A DNA stretch of 64,000 nt from Dictyostelium discoideum. Taxonomy: Eukaryota. The stretch spans positions 4,768,001 to 4,832,000 of the forward strand of contig CM000153.2 of the NCBI GenBank assembly GCA_000004695.1, given 5' to 3'. A program made the translations under genes and the position numbers. Numbering within the stretch: the first letter of the stretch is position 1; each line of letters starts with the position of its first letter. The notes beneath the pieces are model-generated. The model searched no databases. It saw only the letters and a list, made by a program, of their open reading frames with translations, and was not told where the DNA came from. Positions 10,122 to 64,000 of this stretch are shown here, piece by piece.

Positions 10122-10153
<32 letters not shown>

Positions 10154-10202
10154 AAATAAATAAATAAATAAAATTCTTTATTTTTTTTTTTTTTTTTAAA
10201 AA

Positions 10203-11350: not shown

Positions 11351-11386
<36 letters not shown>

Positions 11387-38033: not shown

Positions 38034-38948
38034 TTAAGCTTTAACAATTTTAACAGTTGAAAATGATGGATTTAAAGTTGCAGATACAAAACCAAATGAG
38101 AAAGAATCGCCAGCTTGAAGATTAACAACAAATGGTGGGAAACTTAAATTACCAGTTTTTTGACTTCTTACAATATTCCAAAATTCAGTTGGATTCCAAT
38201 TATCAGAATGAATTTCAATTGATTTAATTGGTGAACTTTCATTATTGGTTAATGTGACTTTATATTGATAATATGTTACACCATTGGCTACCCAATTACT
38301 ATCAGTATCTAATTTATAATTGATTTTTGGTGTTCCAACTGGTGGTGTTGTTGGAGCAACTGTTGGTGTTGGTGTAACTGTTGGAGTAACTGTTGGTGTA
38401 TTACAAGGTTCACCATAATTAAGTTTTGGACATGTATCATATGATTTTAACTAAAAAATTTATTATATTAAATAATTGATTTGAATTAAATTAATGATAA
38501 TAGTTATAATTATAATAATAATAAAAATACATACTGCAACTGTATAATAAAAGTTATTTAAATTGAAGAAACCAACATTACCATTACAAGTAAGTTGAGT
38601 ATTAGTTTGTTTTAATCTAAGATTACCATCACTTAATCTAATACTAAAATCATCAACACGGAATTGATAATCAGCTGCAAATGGTTGAACTAATCCACGA
38701 GAACTACATGTTGTTTCATAGGTTTGTAAATTGTATAATGATTCCCTTAATACAAATTCACCAGATGCAAAAACTAAATTACCTTTATAACCTTCTTGAG
38801 CCAATGATTGATAATGAACACCAGAGATTGAAACTTGAACACATTTTGATGGATCAGCTAATGATGAAAGTAATTGATTACAACTGGTATCACCAAATGC
38901 AACTGATGAAACACCTAATAATGCAACTAATGAATATAATAATTTCAT
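38034..38948 (-). CDS. Secreted two-domain protein, family copy 3 (276 aa); same architecture as 19507..20407. complement(join(38034..38450,38535..38948))
   Basis: Exon 1 is 414 nt, ending FYYTVA|gtatgt. Exon 2 is 417 nt: LKSYDTCPKLNYGEPCNTPTVTPTVTPTPTVAPTTPPVGTPKINYKLDTDSNWVANGVTYYQYKVTLTNNESSPIKSIEIHSDNWNPTEFWNIVRSQKTGNLSFPPFVVNLQAGDSFSFGFVSATLNPSFSTVKIVKA*. Confidence 0.65.
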
Positions 38949-39486
38949 TTTTTATTTTTCTTTTTTTCTTTTTTTTTTTTTGATAAATAAATAAATATAA
39001 AATTTAATAGGATTTAAAATAATAAATAAATAAATATTTAATGTTTTATGTTTAATATTTAATGAAAATTATATTTTTTTTTTTTCCTTTTTATAATTTT
39101 TTTCCTTTTTTTTTTTTTTTCCTTTTTATAATTTTTTTTTCCTTTTTTTATTGTTATAATATTTTTTTATTTTTTTAAAGTTTACATAAATTATAAAAAC
39201 CAGTGTCATTTTATATTGATTTTTTTTCTATAATTGTATATTCGAGAATGTGTTGGTGTGAATGTAATAAATTGTGTGAGTGGGTTGGAGTTTGAAAAAA
39301 AAAAGTTTTTTTGACATGCATAACAACGACAAGCTCGTTTGGATAATACAAAATTTAATTTAACTAAACACATAATTAAAAAAAAAAAATACATTGTTGT
39401 AAAGAAATACAGATTAAAGATTTTATCCTTTTTTATATTATAAAAAAAAATAACAACATCTATGATAATTGATGATATCATTAAAA

Positions 39487-44412: not shown

Positions 44413-44787
44413 TTAATGGCATAGTGAGTGACAGCTTCCAGTTGCAATTCCAACAGATGAACTATAACCAACTGAACTTGAGTAGCTTGAGTTATAAGAA
44501 AAACCTGAACCTGAACTTTGATAGCTTGAGCTATATGAATAACTTGAGCCTCCACAAGCAGTAATACATGCAACTGAATTAGAACTCAACGACAATGAAG
44601 CACCTCCATTTGATGAAACAACAGATTTACTAATTTTATTTGGTCTTGAAATTGAAGTAATTGCAGCTATTTATTAGAAATTAAAAAAAAAAAAAAAGTT
44701 TAAAAAAAGAAAGGAACTAATTAGTTTTTTATTTTTTTTTTTTTTTTTAGTATTTTATTTTATTTTGAACATACATAAAATTGTCAT
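44413..44787 (-). CDS. HssA/2C/7E-family-like small Ser/Gly/Tyr/Cys-rich protein (88 aa) with a 13-nt first micro-exon. complement(join(44413..44666,44775..44787))
   Basis: Exon 1 ATGACAATTTTAT|gtatgt. Exon 2 after acceptor taaatag gives [88 protein letters not shown]. The N-terminus MT(I/L)(L/F)S…S and C-terminal C-H are characteristic of the Dictyostelium hssA/2C/7E family. Confidence 0.55.
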
Positions 44788-45739: not shown

Positions 45740-45820
45740 GTAAACATTTTATTTTTATTTTTTATTTTTTATTTTTTATTTTTTAATTATTTGAAATTTG
45801 TTGATTAGTTATTTTATTAA

Positions 45821-46620
45821 TCATATAGTCTTTGAAAACTGGGAAACTTGAGAAAGGTAATTTAAAATTGATTTTGAATTTGAATTGAATTCTTTAACAC
45901 TTGATAGTTTGTCAATGAATTTTGATATCTTTTCACTATCTTGAATTGAACAATCTTTGAAATAATCTTTATTTAATGGATTTTCAACTTCAATTTTAAA
46001 TATTAAATTTCTTTCATGATCTGAATGAAATTCATTTAAAAATTGGTCAAGTAATTCTACATCTGCTGTTTTAATAATATTCGAATTATAAAAACATTGT
46101 GGAATTAATTCTGCCTTTGAAACATGTTCCACTGAAGATTTTAAACCATTGAAAATGAATTTTGTAGATTCTAATGTTAATGAATCAATTGGAAACATTA
46201 AAACTTGAAATAGCTTGTAAAATCTCTACTTTTTGACCTGCTTTAAAACTTTTTAGATTATGTGATAATGTTTTAAAATCAATTTTTAAATCGGGAATTT
46301 TATAAAATTTGGTTGCAATATTAACGAAATCTTTTAAAATTGAAAGAGAATCTTCTTTTTCAGGATATTCTATTAATATTTTAAAAAAATAAAAACTTGA
46401 AATGATAGAATCTTGATATAGTTCCTTCTTTTGATAACTCTTTTCTAAATAACTATAAACTGATTGTGGAGGATATGATCGATTTCGAAATGTTTCAGTA
46501 ATATAATCACCATCAAAATATAAATTATTTTCATTTTTAACGAATCCTCTATTAAGTAATTCAATTTTAATTTTTTCTGGTATCTTTAACCTAGTTGCAA
46601 GTTTAAAAAATTGTTTTGAT
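45821..46620 (-). pseudogene. Truncated, degenerate duplicate of the middle region (~aa 270-520) of the large ORF at 53852..57148; gene fragment.
   Basis: Minus-strand translation '…IPEKIKIELLNRGFVKNENNLYFDGDYITETFRNRSYPPQSVYSYLEKSYQKKELYQDSIISSFYFFKILIEYPEKEDSLSILKDFVNIATKFYKIPDLKIDFKTLSHNLKSFKAGQKVEILQAISSFN' then a deletion/stop, then 'FPIDSLTLESTKFIFNGLKSSVEHVSKAELIPQ…DCSIQDSEKISKFIDKLSSVKEFNSNSKS' — colinear with 54620..55400. It lacks both the N- and C-terminal thirds. Confidence 0.6.
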
Positions 46621-46847
46621 GTATACTACTATTATTATTATTATTATTATTATTAATTCTTTGATTTCATATATGAGATGATTATTTTTTTTTTTTTTTT
46701 TTTTTCATATTAATACGGCTAAATGATAATGAAAAAAAAAAATGATTGGAAAAGGAATTTATTTTTTTAAACAATAATAATTAAATTGCCTGAATTTTTT
46801 ATTTAAATTTTTTATTTTGAGGATATTGTGGATTAGGATTAATAAAT

Positions 46848-49135
46848 TTACAATTTAGATTGAATATAATTATCTTTAGTGAAAGGACCACCAACTTGGT
46901 TACAAATATTTTCATAGAGATCACCATCCTCCATACCTAAAGGTGAATTCATTAAGTATTCTTCATTACCAAAACCTTTAACTAAAAGCATAGCTTGTTG
47001 AGAGAGATCAGAACATAATTGACCGATTAATTTGATGATAGCTTTAGCTTTACCTTTCTTTAAGTAGTTACTATTTCTAAAGAATTCGAAATCCTCTCTA
47101 ATGATGTAAAGACCATAGAGTTGGCAAAGTTTCTTTAGGATGGAAGCCAATTCGAGATCCTTTTCAGATTGAATTTTTTCAATAAACTTTTGAAGGATGA
47201 TAGTTTCAGTGTGAGCTTTAGCCAAATGAATTAAAATCTCTAAAGATTGATTCCATGCTGTGAATGATTCTTTTGATTTTTTATAATTCTTACTAACGGT
47301 TTGAGCAGATTGAATTAAAAGTTTTGAAGATCTAAATTCCATGCAATCCAAAAGGAATTGGAAAGAGAGTAAATGGTTGTCATCACTACGCATGGTGGTG
47401 ATTGGGTTCATGCCGCTGAGGAGGAGACTGGTGTTTTTGCCCAAATATTTCAATGTGCCAGTGAACTTGTTTCCACTGTACTCCTTCTTGAATTGTGTGA
47501 GTAAATCCTTGGCAACCTGTTGGAGCAATAGTGTGTTATCACCCTCGAATGTTCTACCTACATCGATTGCGGCCACCAATTTACCCAAACGTGAATAGCC
47601 GCCATAACCATGACCGCCACATAATCTTCTCAATTCCATTAGAGACACAGTGGTGAATTGTGAAGTGATTGCTTTGAGACCCGATGCCAATACATGGATT
47701 TCCGCCTCATCAGTTCTCTCTTGGAATCTCTTACCCAAATAGATTTTAATAGCATCGAATGCATAGGTAGATGCAATCATTGGCATGATGGTGAGTTGAT
47801 GTGTTGGGTATGAAAGAATTGGTATCTCTGGTCCTGTTGAGGTTGGTCCGAATTGTAATCTTTTACATGCATAACGGGTGGCAATTATCAAACCAGACTT
47901 TAAAGTACGAGTTGACCCAAAACTAATGGTGATTCTACCAGTGATCATTTGAGCTAAAATATTTGCAAAACGTCTTGATGGATTCTTAATTGGTGATGAG
48001 TAAATTCCATTCTCTACAGACCCAAAACGATCTAATAAATTTGATGCTGGAATTCTAACATTATCAAATTGAATCCAACCATTATCAACACCATGCAAAC
48101 CAAACTTTGAGCCTACATCACCAATTTTCACACCTGGAAGTAAATCTACTCCATTGGATTTACGAATTGGTACTAAAAAACAATGAACCTCATGATCTTT
48201 ACCATCATCCATTATCAATCTTGCAAATACCGATGAAATCTGTGCATGGCCAGCATTACCAATCCACCATTTAGTCGAAGTTCTATAAGGTGTTTGAATT
48301 ATAAATTCATCGGTCTTTGGATCATAAGTAGCAGTAGTCTCTAATGATCTAACATTACTACCATGTCCTAATTCTGTCATTGCAAAACATCCTAATAATC
48401 TTCCTGATTGAATATCTGGTAATAGTTTATGATGTCTCTCTGTTCCTAAATTAAATACTGCGGCACCAAATAAAAAATTATTTACAATTAATTTTGTCAT
48501 TAAACCTATATTTAAAATACAAATATAATTATAAAAATAAATATTAGTATAAACTATTCTCCTCCCAATTTAGAATTAGGATATGTTTTTTATTACTTAC
48601 TTGCATCATCAAATTGTGATACTATATCAATAAATGCTAAAATTTTACTTGGATCATCACGAAGATCTGAAATTTGTATTAAGCCTTTTTCAAAAACACC
48701 ACGAGTAATTTCTAAAACTTGTTTTAATACCAACACTCTATTAGCCTCTTTTGTCATATCCAATTCTTTTACTTTAAAAACTTCACTAGTTGACATAATT
48801 CTATTTAATTCATCTCTAATCTATATAGAAATAAAAATTAAAAATGAAAAAAAAAAAAAAAATTATTATTATTATTATTTTAATATTAATATTAAAATTT
48901 TAATTAATAATAATAATAATAATAATAATAATGGAAAATTTGAAATTATGATATTTACATTATGATTTTCAAAACCTTGAATTGACCAATTTTTTAATTT
49001 ATCTGATAATGATAATTTACTTTTTGAATTTTGATCATTTATTTTTTGTTGAACATCATTATTTGATGGTTTAAATTGTAACATTGCTTTATATCCATCT
49101 CCGATTTTATAAGTTTCAATAAATTGGCCTGCCAC
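46848..49135 (-). CDS. Peroxisomal acyl-CoA oxidase (ACOX), 3 exons, C-terminal PTS1 '-SKL'. complement(join(46848..48505,48601..48820,48959..49135))
   Basis: 'AMTELGHGSNVRSLETTATYDPKTDEFIIQTPYRTSTKWWIGNAGHAQISSVFARL…FLVPIR…GVKIGDVGSKFG…DNGWIQFDNVRIP' is colinear with ACOX1. 'GGHGYGGYSRLGKL' present. Ends …YIQSKL*. Donors are GTAAGT (plus 48595-600) and GTAAAT (plus 48953-58). Whether exon 1 (MAGQFIETYK…) belongs to the gene is less certain. Confidence 0.8.
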
Positions 49136-50680
49136 TTTTTTTTTTTTTTTTTTTCCTTTTATGTCTGTATATATATATTTTTTTATTTAAATTAGTATGT
49201 GTGTTGTAAAAAAAAATTAAAAAAATAAAAATAAAAATAGTGATTAAAATTTCTACTTTTACTAATTTTTTTTTTTTTTTTTTTTTTTTTTTTGGTTTAA
49301 ATTGTATATTTTAATAATTTATAATGAGTATTTTTTTTATTTTTTTAATTTATTATTTTTTTATTTTTTTATTTTTTTATTTTTTTATTTTTTTATAAAA
49401 AAAAGTAGTTTGAGTGTTAATAGATTTAAAAGTTAATTAACTTTTTGTTAATGCGGAATGTTTTTTTTTTTTTTTTTTTTTTATTCGAGTTTTCAAAAAT
49501 AAAAAATTGGGGTGAATAAATAATTTTTTTAATTTTCTTTTTTTTAATAAATCATGCAGTTTCAAACCCAATTATGGGAATTTTTATTATTTTTTTTATA
49601 TTTTTTGGAATAATACAATGGATTTTGTTTTAAAGAAAAAAAAAAGTAATTAAAAAAAGGTTATTAAAAAAATGTAGAAAATTATTTTTACATACTTTAT
49701 AAATTGTTTTAATAATTTTTTTTTATTTTTTTTATTATTATTATTTACACAATACACAACAACACACAAAAAACAAAAACTAACAAAAATTAAAAAAAAT
49801 ATAAAAAAATAAAAAAAAAATAAAAAAAAAAAAATTATGTAAAGCGAAGGAAACCTTACACTTTAAAAATAAAAAAAAAAATCAAAAAATGATGGGTGTT
49901 TTATGGAAACATACCATTATTTTTAAAAAAAAAATAATTTCAAACAGATATTTTGATTAAAAAAAATAAAAAAAAAAATAAAAATTTAAAAAAAAAAAAA
50001 AAATCGTTTTTGTGACTCAATTTTTTGCAGATGGGCGAGATTAACAAAAATTTAAATAAAAAAAAAATAAAAATTTAAAAAAAAAAAAGTGATTTGCCTG
50101 GGTTTATGTCTCTTTATTATAAATTTCAACCATATCAAAAAAAAACACTTAAAATAAAATTAAACATTGAATGTTTAAAGATATTTTTCATTGGTGTCAT
50201 GTAACCCCATTTTTAAAAAGAATGAATAAAAAAGTTTTTTTTTTTTTAATTCGTTCCTTTTTTTTAATTTATATTATTATTTTTTTTTTTTTTTTTTTTT
50301 CTTTTCTAGACATAACGGTTAAAAAAATAAAAAAAAAAAAAAAAGATTTTATCATTTTGTAAAAATAAAATATAATAATAAAATTAAAACTGGTTAAATT
50401 GGTGGGATTCAAAAAAAAAAAGAAGTTCAGATTTATGGCAAAAAAAAAATAAATAAAATATTAATTTTATATTTTTTATATTTTTTATTCTGGCAAATAA
50501 TTATTATTTTCCAGGTGTGGTTAAAATATTCAAAGAATTTTTTTTTTTGAAAATATCATTTTTCAATTAATTGTTTTCAAAAAATGAGAATAAAGATTTG
50601 TTTTTTTTTTTTTTATTTTTTTTTTTCAATTTTTTTATAAATTTTTTTTTTTTTTTTTTAATTAACAAACATAAAATAAC

Positions 50681-50870
50681 ATGATTAATATATTAAAGGA
50701 CATTCTTTATAAATCATATAGCTATTTAGCATTTCCTTTTTTTTATTTGGGTTGGGCAATAAAAAACTCTTATCAACCTAATAAAACTATAAAAGAAGAA
50801 GAATCAAAACCACCCAAATATCCAAAAGAATGGAGTGATTTATTTATCCATTCTTATAATAATGAACATG

Positions 50871-50903
<33 letters not shown>

Positions 50904-50961
50904 ATTTTTTTTTTTTTTTTTAAAATTCTAAGATATTAAATGTTTAATTAATTTAATTAAA

Positions 50962-51000
<39 letters not shown>

Positions 51001-52247
51001 GGAAAAAGTTTTAGAAATAATTCAAAAGGAACCAAATAGTATAAATTCAGTAGATTCATTAAATTGGACACCTTTACATGTTGCTGTTTCAAATAAATCA
51101 ATTGAAGTTGTTACTTTATTATTAGAAAGAAATATTGAAATTTCAATTAAAAGTTTGTATTGTACAATTATAATTAATTCTTTTTTTTTTATATTTTTTT
51201 TTTAATTTTTTTTTTAATTATTAACTTTTTTTTTTTTTTTTTTATAATTTTTAAATAATAAAGGATATACAGCATTTCATATTGCAGCATGTAATGGTGA
51301 TTTAAATATAATTGAAAAGATGATTACAATGAATAGAGTGCCAAATGGTAATATATTATCAAATGATATGGAGACAAGTTTATTTTTATCAATTACAAAT
51401 AATCATTTTGAAATTTCAGAAAAGATAATGGACTATTATCAAAGTAGTATGAATAGTAATGAATTTAAAAAGATGATTGATCAATTTAATGTCCATGGTG
51501 TATCACCATTGATAATGTCAGTATTAAGAAAGAATTTAAAGATGATAAAGAAATTGATTGAAGAGGGTGATGCAGATATCAATAGTTTTAAAAAGGATAA
51601 TTCAACATCACTACATTGTGCAGCAATAATCGATTTCACCGAAGCAATTGAGTATCTATTAGATATTGGTGGTATTGAACTAATGAATTCAATTAATAGA
51701 TATGGTAATTCACCAATTCATGAAGCTGCAATTAAAGGTAACTTTAAATCAATTCAAACTTTTATAAATCAATTAAAAAAGATAATAATTAAAAATAATT
51801 GTAGTGATGGTGATAGTGATAAAGATAAATTAAATTTATTATTATTGGAAATTATTGATAAAAAAGATAAAGATGGTTCAACACCGTTACATTTATGTTG
51901 TAATTGTGTAAATTCTGATAATATTGAAAATAATTTAAAATCATGTAAAGTTTTAATTGAAGAAGGTGGTGTTCAAGTAAATGGTATCGATAGTGGTAAT
52001 GCAACAGCTTTGCATATATTAGCATGTGTTGGTGAAGATAAATCATTACCATTGGTTAAATATTTCCTTAGTATTGGTTCTGATCCAACAATTGAAAATA
52101 AATATGGGTGGACACCAATTCATCAAGCTTATAATAATAAAAATATTCAAATTTATCAATTACTTTTAGATCATTTAAAATTAACAAATTCAACATATAA
52201 ATTAGATATTGAAAAGAAAAGAGTATTTCAATCATCATCAACATCAA

Positions 52248-52304
<57 letters not shown>

Positions 52305-53260
52305 TATTATTAAATAAAGAAGAATTAAAATTAAAAGGAATTGAAAGATTAAAAAATGTAATTAATGGAATTAAAAAAGGTGAATTTAAAAATGTAATTG
52401 TATTAAGTGGTGCAGGTATAAGTGCCAATGCAGGTATACCACCATATAGAACTAAAGATGGATTGTTGGCAAAGAATAAACAATTTTCATTCTCAATGGA
52501 GATATTAGAGAAACATCCAGATGTATTTTATCAAGCGATAAGAGATCACTTTTATCCCATTATTAAAGCATCAAATGATAATGATCGTGATGATGGTATT
52601 AGTGCAGGTATTAAATCAACGAAATCCCATTATTTCATTAATGATTTAAATGAAAAGTATGGATGTTTATTAAGAAATTATACTCAAAATGTTGACCCTT
52701 TACAAGAGAGAACAGGCACTCCTACCGATAAGATCATTCATGCTCATGGTTCATTCGATCAATGGTATTGTACAGTTTGTCAAAAACAATACACTGATAA
52801 GAGTGATAGAATTTGGAGAGAAATTGGTAGAGGTGGTTTACCATTTTGTACGGAACCTGAATGCAGACATGTCATCAGACCAAATGTTGTGTTCTTTGGT
52901 GAACCACTCTCTCAAGACTTTAGAGTAAATACAATCACAGATTTTAGAAAAGCTGATCTATTAATTGTAATGGGTACAAGTTTAATAGTTTATCCATTCG
53001 CTTCACTTGTTAATGATGTTGCTTCTGATGTTCCAAGATTACTATTCAATTTCGAATCAACTGGTCCATTTGTAAATACAATGGATTTAGAAAGAAAGGA
53101 AAAATTAAAACAACAACAAGAAAATGAAAGTGGTGAATCATCAAATGATAATGATAATAATGAATTAATAGTTGAAGCAAGAGGTAATAGAGATATAGTA
53201 ATTTTAGGTGATTGTGATAAAGGTGTTGATTATTTCAATACTCTATTTAATTCATTTTAA
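50681..53260 (+). CDS. Sir2-family NAD-dependent deacetylase with an N-terminal hydrophobic segment and ankyrin repeats (ankyrin–sirtuin fusion). join(50681..50869,51002..51152,51264..53260)
   Basis: Sirtuin core: 'VIVLSGAGISANAGIPPYRT' (GAGIS…GIP(D)FR), 'TQNVDPLQERTG' (QNIDxL), 'HGSF', Zn tetrad 'CTVCQ…FCTEPEC', 'RPNVVFFGE'. Upstream ankyrin repeats (LNWTPLHVAVSNKSIEVVTLLLERN; YTAFHIAACNGDLNII; GSTPLHLCCNCVN; ATALHILACVGED; GWTPIHQAYNN). Exon 1 encodes a hydrophobic stretch (YLAFPFFYLGWAI). Donors are GTTTGT. Confidence 0.75.
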
Positions 53261-53340
53261 ATAATAATTAAATAAAAAAAAAAAAAGTAAAAAAAAAAAA
53301 TAAAAGAATAAAAAAAAAAAAAAAAAAAAAAAAATATTAT

Positions 53341-53640
53341 TGTTTAATTTTACTCAACCAAACACTGCATCATTTTACTCAGTCCAACCCCACATTATTT
53401 TATAAAAAAAAAAAACAAAATATCTTCAGTAGTTTTTTTTTTTTCACAGATAATGATATCATTTTTATAAAATTAAAAATATATTATTGTTTAATTTTAC
53501 CCAATCCAACCCCACATCATTTTATAAAAAAAAAAAAGAACAAAATATCTTCGGTAGTTTTTTTTTTCACAAATAATATCATTTTGATAAAATTAAAATA
53601 AAAATATCTTCTTATGTTTTTTTTTTTACAAACAATAACA
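53341..53640. repeat. ~125-bp tandem repeat (~2.5 copies) between the sirtuin 3' end and the large-ORF 5' end
   Basis: Unit 'attattgtttaattttac(t/c)caa(c/t)c(aa)a…ccccacat(t/c)attttataaaaaaaaaa…caaaatatcttc(a/g)gtagtttttttt…cac(ag)a(t)aat(g)atatcattt(t/g)ataaaattaaaa' recurs at 53341, 53466 and partially at 53590. Confidence 0.7.
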
Positions 53641-53851
53641 TTTTCATAAAATCCCAAAAAAATTAAAAATTAAAAATAAAAAAAAACATTTTTTTGACCC
53701 AGATATTTATTTTTGAATTATTAGGATAATAACAAAAGATATTTTTTTGTTTTTTATTTTTTTTTTTTTTTATTTTTTTTTATACTTTAAAAAGCTTGTT
53801 TTTTTTTTTTTTTTTCATTCCAATTTTTTTTTTTACACTAAAGATTATAAA

Positions 53852-56800
53852 ATGAATTTACACACAAATAATAATAATAATAATAATAATTATGTAGATG
53901 AAAATCTATTTTGGAAAGTTTATAAAAATTTGTTTATTAGAAATTTAATATTTTATAAAATCATTTCAACAACAGTCATTTATAAATATGATGATGATGA
54001 TAGTCTTAGTAGTGGTAAATTTATTGTACCTTCTGATAGAGTACAATTTAAAAATATAATTTCTTTATCATGGATTGTTAAAAGAAATTTATGGTCATTA
54101 TTAAAGTATAAATTAATTAGTAATGAAGAATTAATTATAAAGAAAAAAGCAATAGAATTACTATTACAAGAATGTAAACATGATAAAGATTTATTAAAAC
54201 TAATCTATCAAAACAAGTATTATCAAATGAATCAAATCGATTTAATTTTAAATTCAATTAAACATTCAAATTTAATGGCATTAAAATTATTCATTGAAGA
54301 ATATAATTTACCGACAAATAATAATTCAATGGATATGGCATTAGAAATTGCAAGTAAACAATATTATAGAAATGAAGAAGAACAAAAACAATCATTTGAA
54401 GTTTTTCAATTTTTTTGGGAAAAGAAAAAAGATACTCTTCAATGCACTCAATCAGAGTTATTCAATCAAAATAGAAATTATAATGCATATATGTTACAAT
54501 TAATTTTAAATAATCCAAGTTTATATGGTGAATCTTTACAATCAAATAATAATAATAATAATAATAGTAGTAGTAATAATATTGGTTTAATGACATCAAG
54601 AGAATTTTTTAATCTTGCAGTTATGTCAGTAATACCTGAAAAAATTAAAATTGAATTACTTAATAGAGGATTCGTTAAAAATGAAAAAAGTATATATCGT
54701 GATGGTGATTATATTGCTAAAACAATTCAAAAGCAATCACCATATCTTCCAAAATCAATTTATAGTTATTTAGAAAAGAGTTATCAAAAGAATGAATTAT
54801 ATGAAAATCGTACCATTTCAGTTTTTTATTTTTTTAAAATATTAATTGAATATCCTGAAAAAGAAGATTCTCTTTCAATTTTAAAAGATTTCGTTAATGT
54901 AGCATACAAATTTACAGATTTAGAAATTAGATCATATAATACATTATCACTTAATCCAAATAGTTATAAAGCAGGTCAAAAAGTAGAAATTTTACAAGCT
55001 ATTTCAAGTTTTAATTTTACATTGAAAATTAAGATAATTGAGTCACTATTTCCAATTGATTCATTAACATTAGAATCTACACGATTCATTTTCGATAGAT
55101 TAAAATCTTCAATTGATAATGCTGGAACAATGAAACATGTTTCAAAGGCAGAATTAATTCCACAAAGTTTATATCATTTGAATATTATAAAAACAGCAGA
55201 TGTAGAATTACTTGACCAATTTTTAAATCACTTTCATTCAGATGCTGAAAGAAATTTAATATTTAAAATTGATGATGAAAATCCATTAAATAAAGATTAT
55301 TTCAAAGATTGCTCAATTCAAGATAGTGAAAAGATATCAAAATTCATTGACAAACTATCAAGTGTTAAAGAATTCAATTCAAATTCAAAATCATTTTTAA
55401 ATTGTTTAAAATCAAAACTTTTACCAATTTCGAGTGAATTATATATTTCAAGTTTATTAAAATTTAAAGAAACATCACGTAAACAAACCTATGTACACGC
55501 AAAAGTTTTAGATGAAACATTGTGTGATTTCTTTTCAGAAAAGAATAATTTTAAATCAAATTTAACATCATTTATTAAATTCATTAATTTTAGAAGTTTA
55601 TCAATTACATATCTCGTTGAAAAAGTTTTATTTTCCAATGATTTTGAACTTATAGAATTATTATTAAATACAATATGTAATAATAATAATAATTATGGCG
55701 CAGGTATTATAATGGTTCCAGTTTCATTTAAAACATCTAATCCTGACATAATTAAATTAATCATTTCGAAAAGTAATTGGCATAAATTATTTGATTTTAA
55801 AGGTTTAATCGATACAGTTATTAGTGATAGCAATGTTTGTAATATTAGTAATCCAAATACCGATTCTCAAACCATTGAATTAATTGAAACTGTTATTGAT
55901 TTTTTACATTCAAATAAAATTTATCAAAGAAATTCAAAAGAAGGATTTGGATTTGGATTTGGATTTGGAACAACGAATCAACAAGAAAATCACACTGAAA
56001 AAACAATAATTTCCAACGATGCAACAAAGATTGCACTTTTAAAAAAGAAATCCATTAAAATTTTACAACTTTTATTAAAATATAAAAATTTGTTTGATTG
56101 GGATTCACAATTATTTCCAAAACTTCCAAAATTACCAACAATTCAATTGGATGATGAAATACTTCCAAAATCAGATAAACCAATAATGTCAATTTATGAA
56201 CAACAAGAATTAGAAGACCAAGATTTATATCAATCTAGAAGAAGAAAGCCAAAAAATAAACATGGTGGTGGACGTGGTAGAAGAAGAATTGATACCTATA
56301 ATGACACTGCTTATGATGGCACCAATAACAACATTCCCTATATCGGTAGTATTGGTGGTAGTGTTTTTGCAAGTACTGAAGATTCAGTCAATGGTGGTGG
56401 TAGTGGTTTTTATAGTAGTAGTAGTAGTATTGGTAGTATTAGTAGTATTAGTAGTATTAGTAGTATTAGTAGTAGTAATAATAATAATGAATTAGGTAGT
56501 GATCAAAGTCAATTTATTCTAGGTGGTAATTTCACAGGTTTTAGTGGCAATTATCAGAGTAAAAGTAAAGATAAAAAAAAGATTAGAAATCTATACAATA
56601 CCAATTTCCTTGATAAATTTAAAACACATCAAGCTCAATCAATATTTGATACAATGGACCAATTATTCACTAGAAATTATACGTTTTCATTTGCATACAC
56701 GAGTGATAGTGTTTTTCAAGATTCAATATATCATTCAATAAAGAATAGAAGAATTGATGTAATTGAAAAATTAATAACTATTCAAATGTTTACAGATAAT

Positions 56801-57148
56801 CATGCAAAATTAATTTATTCAGATTTTTTAAAAAGAATTATTAGAAATGATGACGGTGTTGATTTAGTAACTTTTAAATACCTTTTTTCTCATAGATTCC
56901 TCAAGATATTCAGTACAGAGTTTTTACAAACAATGTCACAAGAATTATTAATTTGTGCTGTTTCAGAATGTTGTTTTCATCTTTGTCATTGGTTATTGTC
57001 AACAGATAATCCATGTAATGTATATGTTGAATTCTTGCCATTTAAAACGACCTACATTTTAAATGTCGAGAAAAAATTATCATATTGTGCATCACCAGTT
57101 TTCAAAGATTATATGATGAAAAAAATAAAACCTTTTATTAAATACTAA
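53852..57148 (+). CDS. Large (1099 aa) lineage-specific protein of unknown function; the founding full-length member of a locally multi-copy, fragmented family (see pseudogene features). Poly-N, GFGFGFG and (SIS)n low-complexity tracts.
   Basis: Uninterrupted ORF. Probable ATG at 53852 (MNLHTNNNNNNNNYVDE…); the track ORF starts upstream at 53747. No recognisable catalytic or transposase motifs by eye. Three partial copies lie elsewhere in the window. Confidence 0.6.
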   Translation: MNLHTNNNNNNNNYVDENLFWKVYKNLFIRNLIFYKIISTTVIYKYDDDDSLSSGKFIVPSDRVQFKNIISLSWIVKRNLWSLLKYKLISNEELIIKKKAIELLLQECKHDKDLLKLIYQNKYYQMNQIDLILNSIKHSNLMALKLFIEEYNLPTNNNSMDMALEIASKQYYRNEEEQKQSFEVFQFFWEKKKDTLQCTQSELFNQNRNYNAYMLQLILNNPSLYGESLQSNNNNNNNSSSNNIGLMTSREFFNLAVMSVIPEKIKIELLNRGFVKNEKSIYRDGDYIAKTIQKQSPYLPKSIYSYLEKSYQKNELYENRTISVFYFFKILIEYPEKEDSLSILKDFVNVAYKFTDLEIRSYNTLSLNPNSYKAGQKVEILQAISSFNFTLKIKIIESLFPIDSLTLESTRFIFDRLKSSIDNAGTMKHVSKAELIPQSLYHLNIIKTADVELLDQFLNHFHSDAERNLIFKIDDENPLNKDYFKDCSIQDSEKISKFIDKLSSVKEFNSNSKSFLNCLKSKLLPISSELYISSLLKFKETSRKQTYVHAKVLDETLCDFFSEKNNFKSNLTSFIKFINFRSLSITYLVEKVLFSNDFELIELLLNTICNNNNNYGAGIIMVPVSFKTSNPDIIKLIISKSNWHKLFDFKGLIDTVISDSNVCNISNPNTDSQTIELIETVIDFLHSNKIYQRNSKEGFGFGFGFGTTNQQENHTEKTIISNDATKIALLKKKSIKILQLLLKYKNLFDWDSQLFPKLPKLPTIQLDDEILPKSDKPIMSIYEQQELEDQDLYQSRRRKPKNKHGGGRGRRRIDTYNDTAYDGTNNNIPYIGSIGGSVFASTEDSVNGGGSGFYSSSSSIGSISSISSISSISSSNNNNELGSDQSQFILGGNFTGFSGNYQSKSKDKKKIRNLYNTNFLDKFKTHQAQSIFDTMDQLFTRNYTFSFAYTSDSVFQDSIYHSIKNRRIDVIEKLITIQMFTDNHAKLIYSDFLKRIIRNDDGVDLVTFKYLFSHRFLKIFSTEFLQTMSQELLICAVSECCFHLCHWLLSTDNPCNVYVEFLPFKTTYILNVEKKLSYCASPVFKDYMMKKIKPFIKY

Positions 57149-57227
57149 ATAACAAAATAAAAAATAAATCATAAAATAAAAAAAATTAAATAAATTTAAA
57201 ATACACGTAATATTATCCTCACACATT

Positions 57228-57268
<41 letters not shown>

Positions 57269-57284
57269 CAAAAAAATATATTTG

Positions 57285-57326
<42 letters not shown>

Positions 57327-57894
57327 ATTAGAAATTACAACAAAAACAACCATTTGAAATTTTTCAATATTAAGTTAAAAATTTTCTTGAGTATTGAAGT
57401 TAAAATATAATTTTTGTCACTGCCCAAAATATAATACTTTGTACAAAAAAAAAAAAATTTCACCCTTTCAAAACTGTTATATTTTAATAAAGATTGGTTT
57501 GTTTTGAAAATAATATTAAATTTTGGTCAAAAAAAAAAAAACTCATTAAAACGAAAGTTTTTTTTTTTTAAACCAAAAAAAAAAAAAAAAAAAAAATTAC
57601 TTATTGATTAATAATAGTTTATACATTAAAGGTAGGGATTTTTCACTGTAAAACTGGATAAAAAGTTTTTTGATTATCTATATCCAATTTTTTTTTTTTT
57701 TTTTAAAGCTATTGTTACTGCCATTTAAGATATTTGCAATCGTTTTTTTTTTTGCGTCATTGTGACCACTAAATCCATTTTCCATTTAATTCAAAAAAGT
57801 TTGCTAGGTAAATTAAAAATATAATGTTTAAAAAAATTAAATTGCATAGGAAATTTATTTTTAATGGAATTTTTTTATTTATTAAAAATCTATT

Positions 57895-58186
57895 TTAATA
57901 TTTATAATGGCATCTTGGTTCTGGACGACATGGTGGACATGGACGACAAATTGGACGTGGTGGTGGACATGGATGACAACTATTCCAATGGTGGCTACCC
58001 CATCCCGATGTTTCATTTGAACCAAATGAACCACTTGAACTACCAGTTTCAATTGATGAAACACTTGATTTCAAAGAACCAGTGCTTAATGATGATAATG
58101 ATGCTTTTAAAAATTATTTATTAATAAAATAATAAATTTAAATAATTTTTTTTTTTTTAGGAAAAAAACTTACAAAATAGGGTCAT
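57895..58186 (-). CDS. HssA/2C/7E-family-like small protein (73 aa) with a 13-nt first micro-exon and a Cys/Pro-rich C-terminus. complement(join(57895..58103,58174..58186))
   Basis: Exon 1 ATGACCCTATTTT|gtaagt. Exon 2 after acceptor ttttaaaag gives [73 protein letters not shown]. Same gene architecture and N-terminus as 44413..44787. The exon is the local GC-rich island 57900-58100. Confidence 0.5.
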
Positions 58187-58674
58187 TTTAAAATTTTAAT
58201 AGTTTCTTGTTTAAAAATTAGAGTTTGATTTAATATTTTTTTTTTCTAATTTGGTTACAATTTATAGTTTTTTTTTTTAAAAAAAAGAATAGAAAAACAA
58301 ATAATTTTTTAATTTTATTTTTTAAAATCATACTTTTTGTTTTTTCATTTTTATTTTTTTTTATATCAAAAAACACAATCTCCCCCCATTATATTTTTCT
58401 ATTTGACTTGTGAATTATTTATTCATAAATGATTACTTGTTATATTAATTATTATTATAAATGGGCCTTTGGATTTTGAAATATCAAGAATTCTTAAAAT
58501 AAAAAAGTCTTAAAAAAAAAAAAAAAAAATTTATGGCCACACCAAAAAAGATAATTTTTTTTTTTTTTTTAATCTCAATTGTTTTATTTCAATTTTTATT
58601 TTTAAAATATTATTGTAAAGGTTCACCTTCTCCAACACCGTATAAACTTGAATTATATCAAGATCCTATCATTT

Positions 58675-58770
58675 CAGTTTTTTATTTTTAAAATATTAAT
58701 AGAATATCCTGAAAAAGAAGATTCTCTTTCAATTTTAAAAGATTTCGTTAATATTTCATCCGAATTCCCA
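58675..58770 (+). pseudogene. Short (~95 bp) fragment copy of the large ORF 53852..57148 (region encoding FYFFKILIEYPEKEDSLSILKDFVNI).
   Basis: 'tcagttttttatttttaaaatattaatagaatatcctgaaaaagaagattctctttcaattttaaaagatttcgttaatatt' is >90% identical to 54818-54900. It shares the derived 'gttaatatt' state with the 46.3-kb fragment rather than with the full gene. Confidence 0.55.
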
Positions 58771-60017
58771 ATTTTGAAATTAGATTATATAACACTTTTC
58801 ACCGGAGAAAATACCTAAGAAATTTTACTATTTTGTGAGAAATTAAACTACCGCAAAAACTCATATTTTAAGAAACGACAGTATAATTTAATAAAATTTA
58901 AAACAAACTAATATCAATTTCTAATAAATATTTAATCACACTTTATTATTAAATTATCATAAAATAATAAAAAAGAATCTGGCCATAAAAAAAATATTAA
59001 TGTAAATTAAAAATTGATAAAATCTAATATTATTTAATAAAAATTGAATATTAATTTGTCATTAAATTATAAAAAATTTATTGATTTACAACAATTAATA
59101 GGAAATAATACTATTGTAATTTCTCATTTTTTAAAACATAAAACTATAGTTTAATATATGATATTATATATTATTAAAAACTTTAATAAAATAATAAAAA
59201 ATAAATAAAAAATATTAAAATATAAGAATTTTTATTTTTTTAAATAATTTTTTCCTTATTTATTATAAAAATTAATCAAAAAATAATATTATTTAGTGAA
59301 TAATAATAATTTAATAATCATTTATTTATAATTTAAATATTAAAAAAATACTAATAATAAAATTTATTAAATATTAATTAATAATTTTAAAATATGTTAA
59401 AAAAAAAGAAATTTTCTATATTACTAATTTTTTAAATAAAAAGAAATAATTAATATTAAAGCTATTTTGATTTAATTATTATTTGAAACTAACTAAATTT
59501 ATTGGACATTGTTGTGCCAAAAAAGCAAAATTATTTTTGTAAATTTTTTTTATTTTTTTTTTTTTATTTTTTTTTTTTTGTATCTTATTTTTATTAATTC
59601 AATTCCTATATTTTTTAAAAATAATAAAAATATATATAAATATTTTTTTTTTTTTAAAATTTATTATTTTTTATATAAAAAAAGATAAATTTTATTAATT
59701 TTATTATTTTATATCCTATTTTTTTGGGATTACATATATTTTAAATAAATATGTTGAATATTATAAAATTTTCCAATTTATAATTTATTTTATTATTTTT
59801 TAAACATCTTATTCTCCAAAAATTAAAATTGATTACTTAAATCACCAGTGATGATTTTCCATAAGATTCAAGATTTTTTTATATATTATATTTTAATAAA
59901 ATATCCTATTTTCTAATAATTATTATAATTATTTTTAAAAAAAAAATAACCCGAATATCTTTTAGTATTAATTAAATTTTAATAAAAAATGCTATTTATT
60001 TTTTTATAATAAGTTTG

Positions 60018-60109
<92 letters not shown>

Positions 60110-60110
60110 T
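60018..60110. repeat. (ATA)31 microsatellite abutting the 60.1-kb gene fragment
   Basis: Direct reading. Confidence 0.9.
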
Positions 60111-60130
60111 ATAGTTATAATAATAATAAA

Positions 60131-60605
60131 ACATTTACAGTTCCATTTTTATTAAACATCAAATCCTGAATTAATTATATTAATCATTTCAAATAGTGAT
60201 TGGCACCTATTCTTTGATTTTAAAAGTTTAATCGATACTGTTATTAATGATAGTATTGTTTGTAATGTTAATTGTAACACAGATTCTCAAACCATTGAAT
60301 TACTTGAAACTATTATTAATTTTTTACATTCAAAATTAAATGATCAAACGAAAACAAACAATTTTATTCAACTTAGGATTGGAACGATTTTATCATATGA
60401 AGCAACGAATACTGTATTTTTAAAAAAGAAATTAATTAATATTTTACAATTATTATTATTCCCAATTATTATTATTCCCAATTATTATTATTCCCAATTA
60501 TTATTATTCCCAATTATTTCCAGAACTTCCAATTTTACCAGCAATAAATTACCAAGAAAAAATAAAATTGAAACAAGATCCCTTTAAGAAGAAAATTAAA
60601 AAATA
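60131..60605 (+). pseudogene. Fragment copy of the C-terminal third of the large ORF 53852..57148 (region NPDIIKLIISKSNWHKLFDFKGLIDTVISDS…LLKKKSIKILQLLL), with an internal 4x tandem 16-bp repeat.
   Basis: Translation 'NPELIILIISNSDWHLFFDFKSLIDTVINDSIVCNVNCNTDSQTIELLETIINFLHSKLNDQTKTNNFIQLRIGTILSYEATNTVFLKKKLINILQLLL…' is colinear with 55730..56100. It sits immediately after an (ATA)31 microsatellite. It contains 'ttcccaattattatta' x4 (60463..60527). Confidence 0.55.
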
Positions 60606-60904
60606 AAACTATATAAAATAAAAATTATGAATAATAAAACTGATCAACAAAATTCAAATAATTAAAAATTATCTTTTTCAAGTTTAGCAGTTTTCAAACA
60701 ATATATGATTAAGAAATTAAATAATACATTATCATACCAAATAATTGGAAATTAATTAAATGGTAGATTTATATTCCAAAATCTGTAAAAATATATAATA
60801 TATTTATAACCAATCCCAAATTGAAATAGTTTTCAAAAACTATTTAAAAAATAAATAAAATTAACAAGTTATAAAAATAATAATTAATAAATTTTTTTTT
60901 TTAT

Positions 60905-63900
60905 TTAATGTTTGATTAAAGATCTTAAATATTGAGAGTTTTGAGTACCAGTTTCATCAATTAACCAATTGAATAAACTATTTTCATTTTGAGCCAATAT
61001 TGATGGTTTATTAAATTCGACGATTGAACCAGAATCTAAAACCATAATTCTATCACTTTCAACAATGGTGTTTAGTCTATGAGCGATTGTTAAAATGATT
61101 GCATCCTTAAACTTTTCACGAATAATTCTTTGAATTAATTCATCACTTAGAGAATCGACACTTGCTGTTGCTTCGTCGCATACTAAAATTTTAGGTTTCT
61201 TTAATAATGCACGACCAAGACCAATGAGTTGTTTTTGACCTTGTGACCAATTATCATTAACCCTAAGATCTAAACCCTCATCAGCGACCGATACCTTTTT
61301 AACATGTTCATATAACTGAATCTCTTTTAGGACATCCCATAACTCTGAATCTGTATGCTCTGATAAACTATCTAAATTACTTCTGAGAGTACCAGTGAAC
61401 ATTACTGGTTCTTGAGGGATAATAGCCAATTGACTACGTAAATCTTTTAAACCAATCTTTGATATATCAAGGCCATCAATGATAATTCTACCACTTGATA
61501 ACTCTACGATACGAAACAATGCCAACAATAAACTACTCTTACCACTACCTGTTCTACCACAAATTCCAATCTTTTCACCTGCTTTAATTTCAAATGAAAT
61601 ACCTTTCAATACTGCAGGTAAACCTTGACGATAACTCATTACAACATTTTCGAAAATGATGGGTGGAGTATGATTTGAATTTGTAAGTGATGGCCAACCC
61701 ATTGGTGGTCTATTTGATTCAATGATTTGATCGGGTTCCTGTGGTACATTTTCAGTGTAATAGCTAATTCTTTCGATAGAGTTCATTTTAGTTTCTAATT
61801 CTGCCAATTGTTGAGTTGCTTTATTTAAATTGGTTGTAAGACTAAGTGTATAACTAATTGATAAACCTACACTTGCAATTGCAATACTTGAACGATCGAC
61901 CGTAATAAAAATACAACTAAGGAGTGTAATTAAATTACCAAGTACACTTAAACGTAAACCTAACCATTGATTCATTGCTTGTAATGTTAAATAACATTTA
62001 TTATTATCATCCAACAATGCTTGATTCTTTAAAACATTTTCACCCATTTTTCTAAACGCTCTTAAAGTGATCACACCATTCAATGTCTCTGCAAAATGTG
62101 AGAAAATTGGTGATCTAGTAATTGATTCGATTCTTTGAATTTGAATTGAAGTTCTTCTATAAAAGTATTGAATAAAGTAGAATAAAATTATAATTGGTGT
62201 CATTGGTAATAATAACCAAGGTGTTGCTATCGATATGATTACTAAAATCGCTATACAATTGGTTGAAAAATTTAAAAATTGATTTAAAGAATTTGTTAAC
62301 AACATATCCACAATATCGGTATCTCTTGTAAATCTATTTAAAATACGTCCCAATGGTACAGTATCAAAGAACCACATTGGTGCTCTAAGAATTGACCAAA
62401 ATAATCTCTTATGAATTTCTGTTGTTGCTCTAATTGAATATTCAAAGAATACAATTGTACGAACAATAATTAATAAAACTGTAAGTACACCAATTGCAAT
62501 AAATACTCCAAGAAATTCACCTGCATTTTCAATATCACCATCTTCATTTATATTTAAACTACTTAAACTATCAATAATATAACTACTACTACTACTAATA
62601 CTATTACTACTACTACTATTATTATTATTAATACCTGTTGATGTATGTTTTGATGACCAATTACTTAACCACCAATTTGTAAATGTTGAAGTTGAAGTAT
62701 CAATACAATAACCAAGTAGTGCAATTAAAAATAAGAAACCACCACCAGCAGTTACATAATACATATAATGTTTAAAAGATACCGAACCTTCTTCTCTTTC
62801 TTCGATTGTTGTTAATTTACCATCGTAAAGATCATTGTTGTTTTCTTTTGATTTTATCATTTCATCATCAACGATTTCATCACTATCTTTATCACTATCA
62901 CCAGCCATGTGAGCATATTGTTTTAAAAGTTCGCTGAATAAACTACTATTACCATAAGCAGAATTGATTGTTGAAATTATATTTTCAAAGGTATCATATT
63001 GTTCGACTTCACCACCAGTTTTCAATATTAAAGTTTGAGTTGAATATGGACAATAGTTTAACTGATTCGTTGCTAATACTACTATTTTCTCCTTTAGAAT
63101 ACCTTTGATACAATTATAGAAAAGGTGTTTACCAACATGTGCATCGACAGCTGATAAAATATCATCTAAAATATAGATATCTGAATCAGAGTAAACTGCA
63201 CGTGCAATTGCGACACGTTGTTTTTGACCACCAGATAAATTAATACCACGTTCACCAATCTCAATAAGATCACCTTGTGGGAATAATGCAAGATCGGGTA
63301 AAAGTGCACAACAATTCAATACCATTTCATATCTCTCCTTATTATACTCTTTACCAAATAGAATATTATCCTTTAACGATGCATTCATAATCCATGCACT
63401 CTGTGAAACATATGCAATACTACCAACCACTCTTAAAGATCCATTATTCTCTAATTCCATCTCACCTAACAATGCTTGACAAAATGATGATTTACCACTA
63501 CCAACTGGTCCGATTACCATTAATAATGATCCTTTTTCTTTAACTTGACAACTTGTATTTTTTAATGAAAATGATACTTGAACTTCTTTTTTTTCATTAT
63601 TACTATTATTGCCACTAGGTGAACTTTTATCATTACTTGGTGTTGTTCTTGGTGGTGGTGGATTAGTTTGAGGTTTAATTGCCCAAGAAAAAGTAGTATT
63701 ATCCATATAAATCCCAATATCAGTTTGTTGTTGTTTTTGTTGATCACAAACATTAACATTAATTTCATTATTTTTATCATCACCTTGATTAATTTCATCC
63801 ATATTTAAAAAATTAACAACACGTTCAATTGAAACCTTAAATTGAATGTAAATATTATAACCATATGGTAAGAAAGTGAATGGAACACGAATAATATTTA

Positions 63901-64000
63901 AATATGCAACAGCTGCAAATATTTTATCCGCTGGTAATTTACTATTAACTAAATAATAAACTGTAAACATAAATATTGAAATAATTGTTGGAATTGATTG
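60905..64000 (-). CDS. ABC transporter, ABCC (MRP) subfamily; 3' portion only (NBD1, TMD2, NBD2). The 5' end lies beyond the window edge.
   Basis: NBD1 Walker A 'GPVGSGKSS', signature 'LSGGQKQRVAIARA', Walker B 'IYILDD'. NBD2 'GRTGSGKSSLLLALFR', 'NWSQGQKQLIGLGRALL', 'ILVCDEATASVD'. A long TMD2 lies between them. Stop at 60905. Confidence 0.85.
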   Translation of the reverse strand, partial: QSIPTIISIFMFTVYYLVNSKLPADKIFAAVAYLNIIRVPFTFLPYGYNIYIQFKVSIERVVNFLNMDEINQGDDKNNEINVNVCDQQKQQQTDIGIYMDNTTFSWAIKPQTNPPPPRTTPSNDKSSPSGNNSNNEKKEVQVSFSLKNTSCQVKEKGSLLMVIGPVGSGKSSFCQALLGEMELENNGSLRVVGSIAYVSQSAWIMNASLKDNILFGKEYNKERYEMVLNCCALLPDLALFPQGDLIEIGERGINLSGGQKQRVAIARAVYSDSDIYILDDILSAVDAHVGKHLFYNCIKGILKEKIVVLATNQLNYCPYSTQTLILKTGGEVEQYDTFENIISTINSAYGNSSLFSELLKQYAHMAGDSDKDSDEIVDDEMIKSKENNNDLYDGKLTTIEEREEGSVSFKHYMYYVTAGGGFLFLIALLGYCIDTSTSTFTNWWLSNWSSKHTSTGINNNNSSSSNSISSSSSYIIDSLSSLNINEDGDIENAGEFLGVFIAIGVLTVLLIIVRTIVFFEYSIRATTEIHKRLFWSILRAPMWFFDTVPLGRILNRFTRDTDIVDMLLTNSLNQFLNFSTNCIAILVIISIATPWLLLPMTPIIILFYFIQYFYRRTSIQIQRIESITRSPIFSHFAETLNGVITLRAFRKMGENVLKNQALLDDNNKCYLTLQAMNQWLGLRLSVLGNLITLLSCIFITVDRSSIAIASVGLSISYTLSLTTNLNKATQQLAELETKMNSIERISYYTENVPQEPDQIIESNRPPMGWPSLTNSNHTPPIIFENVVMSYRQGLPAVLKGISFEIKAGEKIGICGRTGSGKSSLLLALFRIVELSSGRIIIDGLDISKIGLKDLRSQLAIIPQEPVMFTGTLRSNLDSLSEHTDSELWDVLKEIQLYEHVKKVSVADEGLDLRVNDNWSQGQKQLIGLGRALLKKPKILVCDEATASVDSLSDELIQRIIREKFKDAIILTIAHRLNTIVESDRIMVLDSGSIVEFNKPSILAQNENSLFNWLIDETGTQNSQYLRSLIKH

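Follow-up and report, generated by a model that had tools for sequence, protein, structure and literature searches.

How does a large open reading frame (ORF) come to lie among partial copies of itself, in both orientations and within 15 kb of DNA? The question is raised by a 64-kb stretch of the Dictyostelium discoideum genome (contig CM000153.2, positions 4,768,001 to 4,832,000; hereafter the window, to which all positions refer unless another sequence is named), where the initial annotation had described three such copies around an ORF on the plus strand and had seen in them either a mobile or repetitive sequence or a rapidly turning-over gene family. We consider it highly probable that the locus consists of one working gene of a small, dictyostelid-only family (copy 1) together with the decaying remains of two local paralogues (copies 2 and 3), and that transposition was not involved. 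Judged by their sequence, the fragments are unprocessed pseudogenes left by ordinary gene birth-and-death: their homology to the parent gene includes its 3' flank, they carry disabling lesions, constraint on them is relaxed, and a fuller orthologue lies at the same position.

Fragments were matched by BLASTN and TBLASTN of the ORF (53852-57148) against the window with low-complexity filters (DUST, SEG) on, and the significance of the matches (E from 0 to 1e-10) bears out that they are true homologues of the ORF. Chance low-complexity similarity or an assembly artefact might be suspected in a genome that is full of simple repeats and, across the window, about 22% G+C, yet we give such an explanation almost no credence. 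E-values under filtering reach 0, the fragments keep conserved protein blocks, and orthologous copies exist in another species, which together refute low-complexity matching as the source of the fragments; moreover, no fragment differs in a second D. discoideum chromosome assembly (GCA_054883475.1), which is 99.78% identical over window positions 43836-64000 and differs by 15 homopolymer-length changes or single-nucleotide polymorphisms (SNPs), none of them inside the ORF or the fragments. The fragment coordinates first proposed were correct in substance and slightly too narrow for all three fragments, termed here relic A, fragment B, and fragment C (Table 1).

Relic A, on the acyl-CoA oxidase (ACOX) side, is without the 5' 688 nt of the ORF, and its main block continues directly into sequence matching the end of the coding sequence (CDS) and the 3' untranslated region (3'UTR) of copy 1. 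At the junction about 1.36 kb is gone that is kept in copy 2 of D. cf. discoideum (L003, about 10707-12062), and the breakpoints have a 4-5-nt microhomology in common (AATT/AAATT), as expected of slippage or microhomology-mediated joining. Near 46197 the reading frame shifts, TBLASTN returning two frames, and the internal deletion or stop reported earlier for this fragment is in fact a frameshift combined with an internal deletion. All 23 of the C-terminal 23 codons match the amino acids of the D. cf. discoideum protein P0002 and differ from copy 1. The ratio of nonsynonymous to synonymous substitution rates (dN/dS) between relic A and copy 1 is 1.06 (254 codons), compared to 0.32 for copy 1 between species over the same region, and because of this ratio relic A appears to be drifting neutrally with respect to copy 1. 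An ATG-initiated ORF of 125 aa is kept within it.

The remaining pieces belong together. A mini-fragment directly 3' of copy 1, fragment B, and fragment C share the strand of the ORF and follow its order, and the idea of three independent fragments gives way to one in which B and C are collinear parts of a single decayed tandem copy, copy 3. A 2-nt deletion in fragment B shifts the frame; public annotation draws an 81-aa gene model (P0040) over it. The (ATA)n microsatellite, which the initial annotation had placed before fragment C with 31 units and which Tandem Repeats Finder (TRF) puts at ~37, sits exactly at the parent's (AAT)5 poly-Asn tract (ORF nt 1827-1842; CNNNNNY, aa 609-615), and because it occupies this homologous site we take it to be an in-place expansion of a coding trinucleotide tract after loss of constraint. 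The tandem repeat of a 16-bp unit, CAATTATTATTATTCC, also reported earlier, was recovered inside fragment C as 4.5 perfect copies and counts as inserted sequence by comparison with the parent (C2 aligns over 144 nt here and 122 nt in the ORF). The 3' end of fragment C matches that of relic A (60755-60650 against 45776-45881, 77.8%), both relics keeping the 3' end of the CDS plus about 40-100 nt of 3'UTR homology. A 1.25-kb segment inside the copy 3 relic (57400-58650) is specific to D. discoideum, with no counterpart in the D. cf. discoideum sequence L005, and carries a small two-exon gene on the minus strand that is not part of the duplicated family. Very permissive BLASTN of the ORF against the flanks (word size 7, +1/-1) returned AT-rich noise only and no further credible relic pieces.

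Synteny with other Dictyostelium species identifies both relics. Window positions 34.6-57.2 kb are syntenic with the contig of D. cf. discoideum at 87-94% identity, and the gene order in that species is copy 2 (minus), ACOX (minus), Sir2 (plus), copy 1 (plus), copy 3 (plus), ABC transporter (minus). The orthologue of the ORF, encoding 1126 aa at 89% amino acid identity, follows Sir2. P0002 (672 aa) is inverted on the far side of ACOX, at the exact position of relic A. The stretch from the copy 1 orthologue to the ABC gene holds P0005, a spliced model of 355 aa whose locus tag, 008245, comes five after that of P0002. The flanks on either side of P0005 align well (window 53000-57337 with L005 5580-9898 at 87%; window 60664-64000 with L005 11918-15252 at 95%), and fragment C aligns collinearly to the body of the P0005 region at 83.6%. 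Because P0002 and P0005 occupy the same syntenic positions, relic A is best explained as the remnant of copy 2, and B plus C as that of copy 3. D. cf. discoideum has the mini-fragment at the same place, window 54269-54376 matching L005 9889-10005. Copy 3 retains ORF nt 25-289, 418-525, about 1540-2290, and about 2955-3300 in D. cf. discoideum, without the B segment, and nt 505-562, 942-1099, 1827-2291, and 3221-3300 in D. discoideum; since the union of the two sets spans the N- to the C-terminus, the ancestral copy 3 was essentially complete and decayed independently in each lineage. Copy 2 begins at about aa 230-280 in both species and was probably 5'-truncated from early on. Beside copy 2, D. 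cf. discoideum also has an inverted chimeric piece (L003 9323-9989, 115-aa model P0017) in which ORF aa ~565-610 is fused to ~246-281; this rearranged fragment is not found in D. discoideum, where aa 248-281 is contiguous with relic A. In D. firmibasis the order ACOX-Sir2-copy 1-paralogue-ABC is the same as in D. discoideum. D. citrinum has a single family copy in the 23 kb examined; downstream of it lies only a 245-bp piece of the ABC transporter (L002 13202-13446, 89%), and its upstream neighbours differ (ArfGAP, transthyretin-like), the locus having been rearranged in that lineage. The comparative assemblies probably come from the ten long-read Dictyostelium genomes from the discoideum clade and the citrinum clade produced in the study that also reports on the tgr family (PMC12745789).

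Table 1. Positions of copy 1, the relics of copies 2 and 3, and neighbouring genes in the window
Feature	Position	Strand	Matching part of copy 1	Identity and remarks
Small Gly/Ser/Cys-rich gene	44413-44595	minus		
Relic A (copy 2), whole	45746-46666	minus		next to ACOX side
Relic A, 3' end	45746-45842	minus	57095-57191 (last ~54 nt of CDS, ~43 nt of 3'UTR)	77%
Relic A, deletion junction	45843-45858	minus		
Relic A, main block	45859-46666	minus	ORF nt 689-1552	82.7% over 873 columns, E=0
Relic A, inverted arm	45859-46134	minus	55128-55403	95% over 276 nt
ACOX, 3' exon	46848-48500	minus		ends ...SKL
Ankyrin-Sir2 gene	51320-53260	plus		
Copy 1, 1098-aa ORF	53852-57148	plus		
Copy 3 relic, whole	57319-60755	plus		between copy 1 and ABC transporter; matches P0005 region, L005 about 9898-12024
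Mini-fragment	57319-57371	plus	ORF nt 505-562	91% over 33 nt, 78% over 58 nt
Small Gly/Ser/Cys/Pro-rich gene, two exons	57895-58186	minus		ATG 58186, exon 2 about 58103-57895
Fragment B	58649-58802	plus	ORF nt 942-1099	87.3%, E 4e-48; between copy 1 and ABC transporter
(ATA)n microsatellite	60018-60129	plus		
Fragment C	60094-60755	plus		pieces C1, C2, C3; between copy 1 and ABC transporter
C1	60094-60353	plus	ORF nt 1827-2081	78.4%, E 2e-58
C2	60402-60585	plus	ORF nt 2170-2330	BLASTN core 60402-60545 = nt 2170-2291, 68%, E 4e-10
16-bp tandem repeat	60447-60518	plus		100% matches
C3	60650-60755	plus	CDS 3' end and 3'UTR	core 60664-60721 = ORF nt 3221-3278, 76%
ABC transporter	60905-63970 and beyond	minus		

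Might the fragments nevertheless be alive, as exons of short functional genes or as a source of regulatory antisense or small RNAs acting against copy 1? The 125-aa ORF in relic A and the predicted genes P0040 (over B) and P0002, P0005, and P0017 (over the D. cf. discoideum copies) could be read in this way, and relic A is inverted with respect to copy 1, such that read-through from the ACOX side could yield antisense RNA. However, frameshifts, 5' truncation, and big lineage-specific deletions make this distinctly unlikely, as do a dN/dS of about 1 against copy 1, the growth of a microsatellite and a tandem repeat inside former CDS, and the retention of different segments in each species, which would not be expected of conserved short genes.

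Copy 1 itself has every appearance of a gene. Its ORF is intact and intronless and encodes 1098 aa, and the GFGFGFG, SISSISS, and poly-N tracts and the ENPLNKDYFKDCSIQDSEKISKFIDKL block described earlier are all present in it. The same description had noted no recognisable domain, and a Pfam scan agrees, giving only a sub-threshold match to the DnaB N-terminal domain (E 0.76); Pfam searches with the N- and C-terminal parts returned nothing usable, and a sequence profile search of the PDB gave no match. Between D. discoideum and D. cf. discoideum the whole gene has a dN/dS of 0.36, and because the neighbouring genes range from 0.04 to 0.23 in the same species pair (ACOX 0.04, ABC transporter 0.12, Sir2 gene 0.23), copy 1 is a constrained yet fast-evolving gene. 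Relatives of its protein were found only in Dictyostelium. The size of the family rests mainly on an exhaustive hidden Markov model (HMM) search of 1.84 billion protein representatives, which matched 39 proteins, since word-indexed protein searches were patchy and missed the orthologue and the self match, apparently owing to low-complexity words. Eight of the 39 matches extend beyond an N-terminal module (four long, at 672-947 aa, and four short, at 103-355 aa). Relatives of the copy 1 protein include D. citrinum P0001 (68% identity) and D. cf. discoideum P0002 (70%), and a distant D. discoideum paralogue at another locus (P0003/P0004) shares 28-29%. About 30 other dictyostelid proteins, all hypothetical or uncharacterised, have in common only the N-terminal ~90-190 residues with the conserved motif LFWKVFKNKYL..LIF ... 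GNRIKF..I.SL.WM...W.LLKDKL.SN.

Structure prediction suggests what this module may be. The copy 1 protein is predicted to be all-alpha, with an ankyrin-like module at about aa 70-225 behind the conserved LFWKVxKN...IF motif. A model of the N-terminal 230 aa built from a 32-sequence alignment reached a predicted local distance difference test (pLDDT) of 85 and a predicted template modelling score (pTM) of 0.74, and consists of two N-terminal helices followed by stacked helix pairs, a helix-turn-helix stack that superposes on solved ankyrin domains; the poly-N, GF-repeat, and SIS-repeat tracts fall in low-confidence segments. Of ten relatives scanned, one distant relative, P0014, passed the Ank_4 threshold (23.6 bits against a cutoff of 22.7), and the others fell below it. 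On the strength of the model, the copy 1 protein is most likely a divergent ankyrin-like alpha-solenoid that acts as a scaffold or adaptor in protein-protein interactions. Compared to ankyrin-repeat proteins proper (Pfam clan Ank; FEM1B, DARPins, KANK3, IkB-alpha), its sequence identity to ankyrin structures is only 7-11%, and the family's own N-terminal motif (LFWKVFKN..IF / GNRIKF..I.SL.WM) is not known from ankyrin proteins; we therefore liken it to a divergent ankyrin-type scaffold but do not file it as a member of the Pfam Ank family.

The relationships among the copies account for an observation in the initial annotation, that fragment B groups with relic A rather than with the full-length gene. 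This grouping was recovered, B being 92.4% identical to relic A over 119 nt compared to 87.3% to the full-length gene. In the C segment, copies 2 and 3 of D. cf. discoideum are 90.8% identical to each other, and fragment C of D. discoideum is 85-88% identical to them compared to about 78-79% to copy 1. Hence copies 2 and 3 group together to the exclusion of copy 1, and the likeness of B to A is explained. In neighbour-joining trees of short segments D. citrinum branches outside the group of copies 1, 2, and 3, and from this branching order we infer that the duplications came after the D. citrinum split and before D. discoideum and D. cf. discoideum separated; support in these trees was too weak to tell which of copies 2 and 3 arose first.

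It is against this background that transposition has to be weighed. In principle the ORF could belong to a mobile or repetitive element whose dead insertions are the fragments: partial copies occur in both orientations over a short distance, B groups with relic A and not with the full copy, and a protein lacking any recognisable domain leaves an unknown transposition function conceivable. Several lines of evidence make this very improbable. Synteny of position is conserved for all copies between D. discoideum and D. cf. discoideum, and for two of them in D. firmibasis; the family amounts to one to three copies per genome at one locus plus one distant paralogue; the relic A junction is a plain microhomology deletion and not an element end; and the predicted fold is ankyrin-like. 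Neither the Pfam scan nor the PDB profile search of the ORF gave a transposase, reverse transcriptase, integrase, or tyrosine recombinase signature. Self-BLAST and a repeat finder revealed no terminal inverted or direct repeats flanking the ORF or the fragments, only gene-internal homologies and A/T-rich simple sequence, a tRNA scan for the context of a TRE-type element found no tRNA gene nearby, and no further copies were present in the 64-kb window, at the locus of the distant paralogue, or at the D. citrinum locus. With the well-known transposable elements of Dictyostelium (DIRS-1, Skipper, DGLT-A, TRE5/TRE3, Tdd-4/5, DDT, and thug, named here from general knowledge) the locus shares only its partial copies in both orientations at short distance; unlike them, it has no enzymatic domains, terminal repeats, nearby tRNA gene, or, in the loci and the protein library searched, dispersed copies, and its copies are syntenic between species. 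The initial annotation had raised terminal repeats or target-site duplications at the fragment ends and a transposase or integrase fold as possible marks of mobility; neither materialised, the first given the repeat searches and the nature of the relic A junction, the second given the outcome of the Pfam and PDB profile searches and the ankyrin-like model. Of its two alternatives the gene family stands, on syntenic paralogues and the dN/dS of copy 1, and the mobile sequence falls, for want of an enzyme domain and terminal repeats.

Descent by duplication is overlaid by exchange between the inverted copies. Similarity between copies 1 and 2 is a mosaic, at 89-91% over ORF nt 689-1552 and 79-81% over nt 1827-2300. 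Informative sites were counted in a quartet of copy 1 from both species, relic A, and D. cf. discoideum copy 2 (Dd1, Dcf1, DdA, and Dcf2): of those in nt 689-1000, 10 unite the copies by orthology and none by species (the concerted pattern), compared to 4 by orthology and 9 by species over nt 1000-1552 (Fisher's exact p = 0.0016). Within the latter stretch, a 276-nt inverted arm of relic A is as similar to copy 1 as orthologues are (Table 1), and is likely, by this similarity, a tract of recent gene conversion between inverted copies. Because the concerted sites are bounded to nt 1000-1552, a stretch that takes in this 95% identical tract, it would appear that copies 1 and 2 exchange sequence by gene conversion within each species over nt ~1000-1552.

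Such exchange invites the further thought that the relics are kept as donor templates that diversify a fast-evolving copy 1, a form of pseudogene-templated diversification. The mosaic signal of concerted evolution between copy 1 and relic A within each species and the raised dN/dS of copy 1 relative to its neighbours fit this proposal, and other fast-evolving Dictyostelium families, such as tgr, have many pseudogenes (PMC12745789). We nevertheless hold it to be unlikely. The conversion signal does not give the direction of transfer and affects only about 550 nt, copy 1 and the relics show no difference between the two D. discoideum assemblies, so that no ongoing diversification is visible, a dN/dS of 0.36 is purifying overall rather than diversifying, and nearby repeats can be expected to convert one another passively, as a by-product. 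A bolder version, in which the inverted relic A (and perhaps B plus C) would serve as a conversion reservoir diversifying copy 1, a dictyostelid-specific interaction protein, much as pseudogene templates do for antigen or recognition genes, and the N-terminal module of the ~30 unnamed proteins would define a new adaptor superfamily, seems to us similarly improbable.

Taken as birth-and-death, the history of the locus can be reconstructed as follows. Three copies were already present in the ancestor that D. discoideum shares with D. cf. discoideum: copy 1, an inverted and 5'-truncated copy 2 beyond the ACOX-Sir2 pair, and a tandem copy 3 on the stretch from copy 1 to the ABC gene. They were probably made by ordinary segmental duplication, both tandem and inverted, after the D. 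citrinum split. Copy 2 of D. discoideum has since become relic A, with the frameshift and the 1.36-kb microhomology deletion, and its copy 3 has been reduced to B plus C by several deletions, with the (ATA)~37 expansion, the 16-bp repeat, and the 1.25-kb lineage-specific segment added, while D. cf. discoideum has lost other segments. A number of observations weigh against this reconstruction or the picture of the gene that accompanies it. The pseudogene status of the fragments is deduced from sequence alone, and B as well as the D. cf. discoideum copies bear short gene models in public annotations. The dN/dS of relic A comes from about 250 codons and is confounded by gene conversion, the conversion signal itself comprises 23 informative sites, and the trees used for timing were built on 150-185 ungapped columns, with low bootstrap at several nodes. 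In D. firmibasis, the copy 3 slot (L006 10001-12844) holds an old, intact 947-aa paralogue, P0006, with 36% amino acid identity to copy 1; a paralogue of this type was either replaced by a younger duplicate in the D. discoideum lineage or overwritten by conversion. As for the protein, Foldseek, given the confident N-terminal model, retrieved nothing significant from the PDB, neither the ORF nor its N-terminal 230 aa matches an Ank HMM, and the full-length AlphaFold2 (AF2) model is of low confidence (pLDDT 54).

Local birth-and-death has a close precedent in the tgr family, with 38 genes and 26 pseudogenes in strain AX4 (PMC12745789). As in families of that type, the copies described here are local tandem and inverted duplicates, some of them truncated, frameshifted, or internally deleted and under relaxed constraint, with different segments lost in sister species and some gene conversion between neighbours. 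Unlike tgr, however, this family is tiny, comprising three copies at one locus and one distant paralogue, its product is predicted to be ankyrin-like rather than a TIG-repeat surface receptor, and the family of copy 1 has no known link to allorecognition or another phenotype.

The surroundings of the locus also bear on its annotation. Both small flanking genes that the initial annotation had called hssA-like exist, but the name reflects resemblance only. The gene at 57895-58186 encodes MTLF..., followed by an intron and a Ser/Gly-rich stretch. A layout of this kind, with MTLF in the first exon and, beyond the intron, a second exon rich in Gly, Ser, and Cys, may fit the HssA/2C/7E family, an assignment unconfirmed by Pfam, which gave no match for either gene; at the DNA level the two show no similarity to each other. 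In GCA_054883475.1, the ACOX gene model (window 45813-49127, L001 1978-5292) is 928 aa long and runs over relic A. ACOX orthologues measure 684-685 aa, and the ACOX ORF of the window stops at 46848 with a C-terminal SKL, the classic peroxisomal targeting signal; the fusion of ACOX with relic A is probably an annotation artefact. Just 5' of the full-length ORF, the intergenic sequence at 53372-53598 holds a 122-bp tandem repeat (1.9 copies, 87% matches), and near it, at 53655-53671, lie three of the handful of SNPs that separate the two D. discoideum assemblies. Elsewhere in the window, three paralogous two-exon genes on the minus strand (19411-20601, 21591-22799, and about 38000-39100) encode a secreted protein with a Thr/Pro linker, and Pfam CBM49 is present in its counterpart from D. 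cf. discoideum; the first two form a 1.2-kb tandem pair at 78% identity, making this another locally duplicated family.

Local duplication, pseudogenisation, and gene conversion at this locus are ordinary processes, and nothing here is unexpected in kind. The locus does point to a set of dictyostelid-restricted, ankyrin-like proteins of ~1000 aa that share a conserved N-terminal module and have neither a Pfam family nor a known function. For annotation, the regions at 45.7-46.7 kb and 57.3-60.8 kb are to be recorded as pseudogene relics of two paralogues; to label them repeats, short genes (the 81-aa model over B being one example), or a portion of ACOX would be wrong. For the study of gene loss, they offer a clean and datable case of decay in a very AT-rich genome, one that combines microhomology deletion, the turning of a codon tract into a microsatellite, species-specific loss of segments, and conversion between a live gene and its inverted relic.

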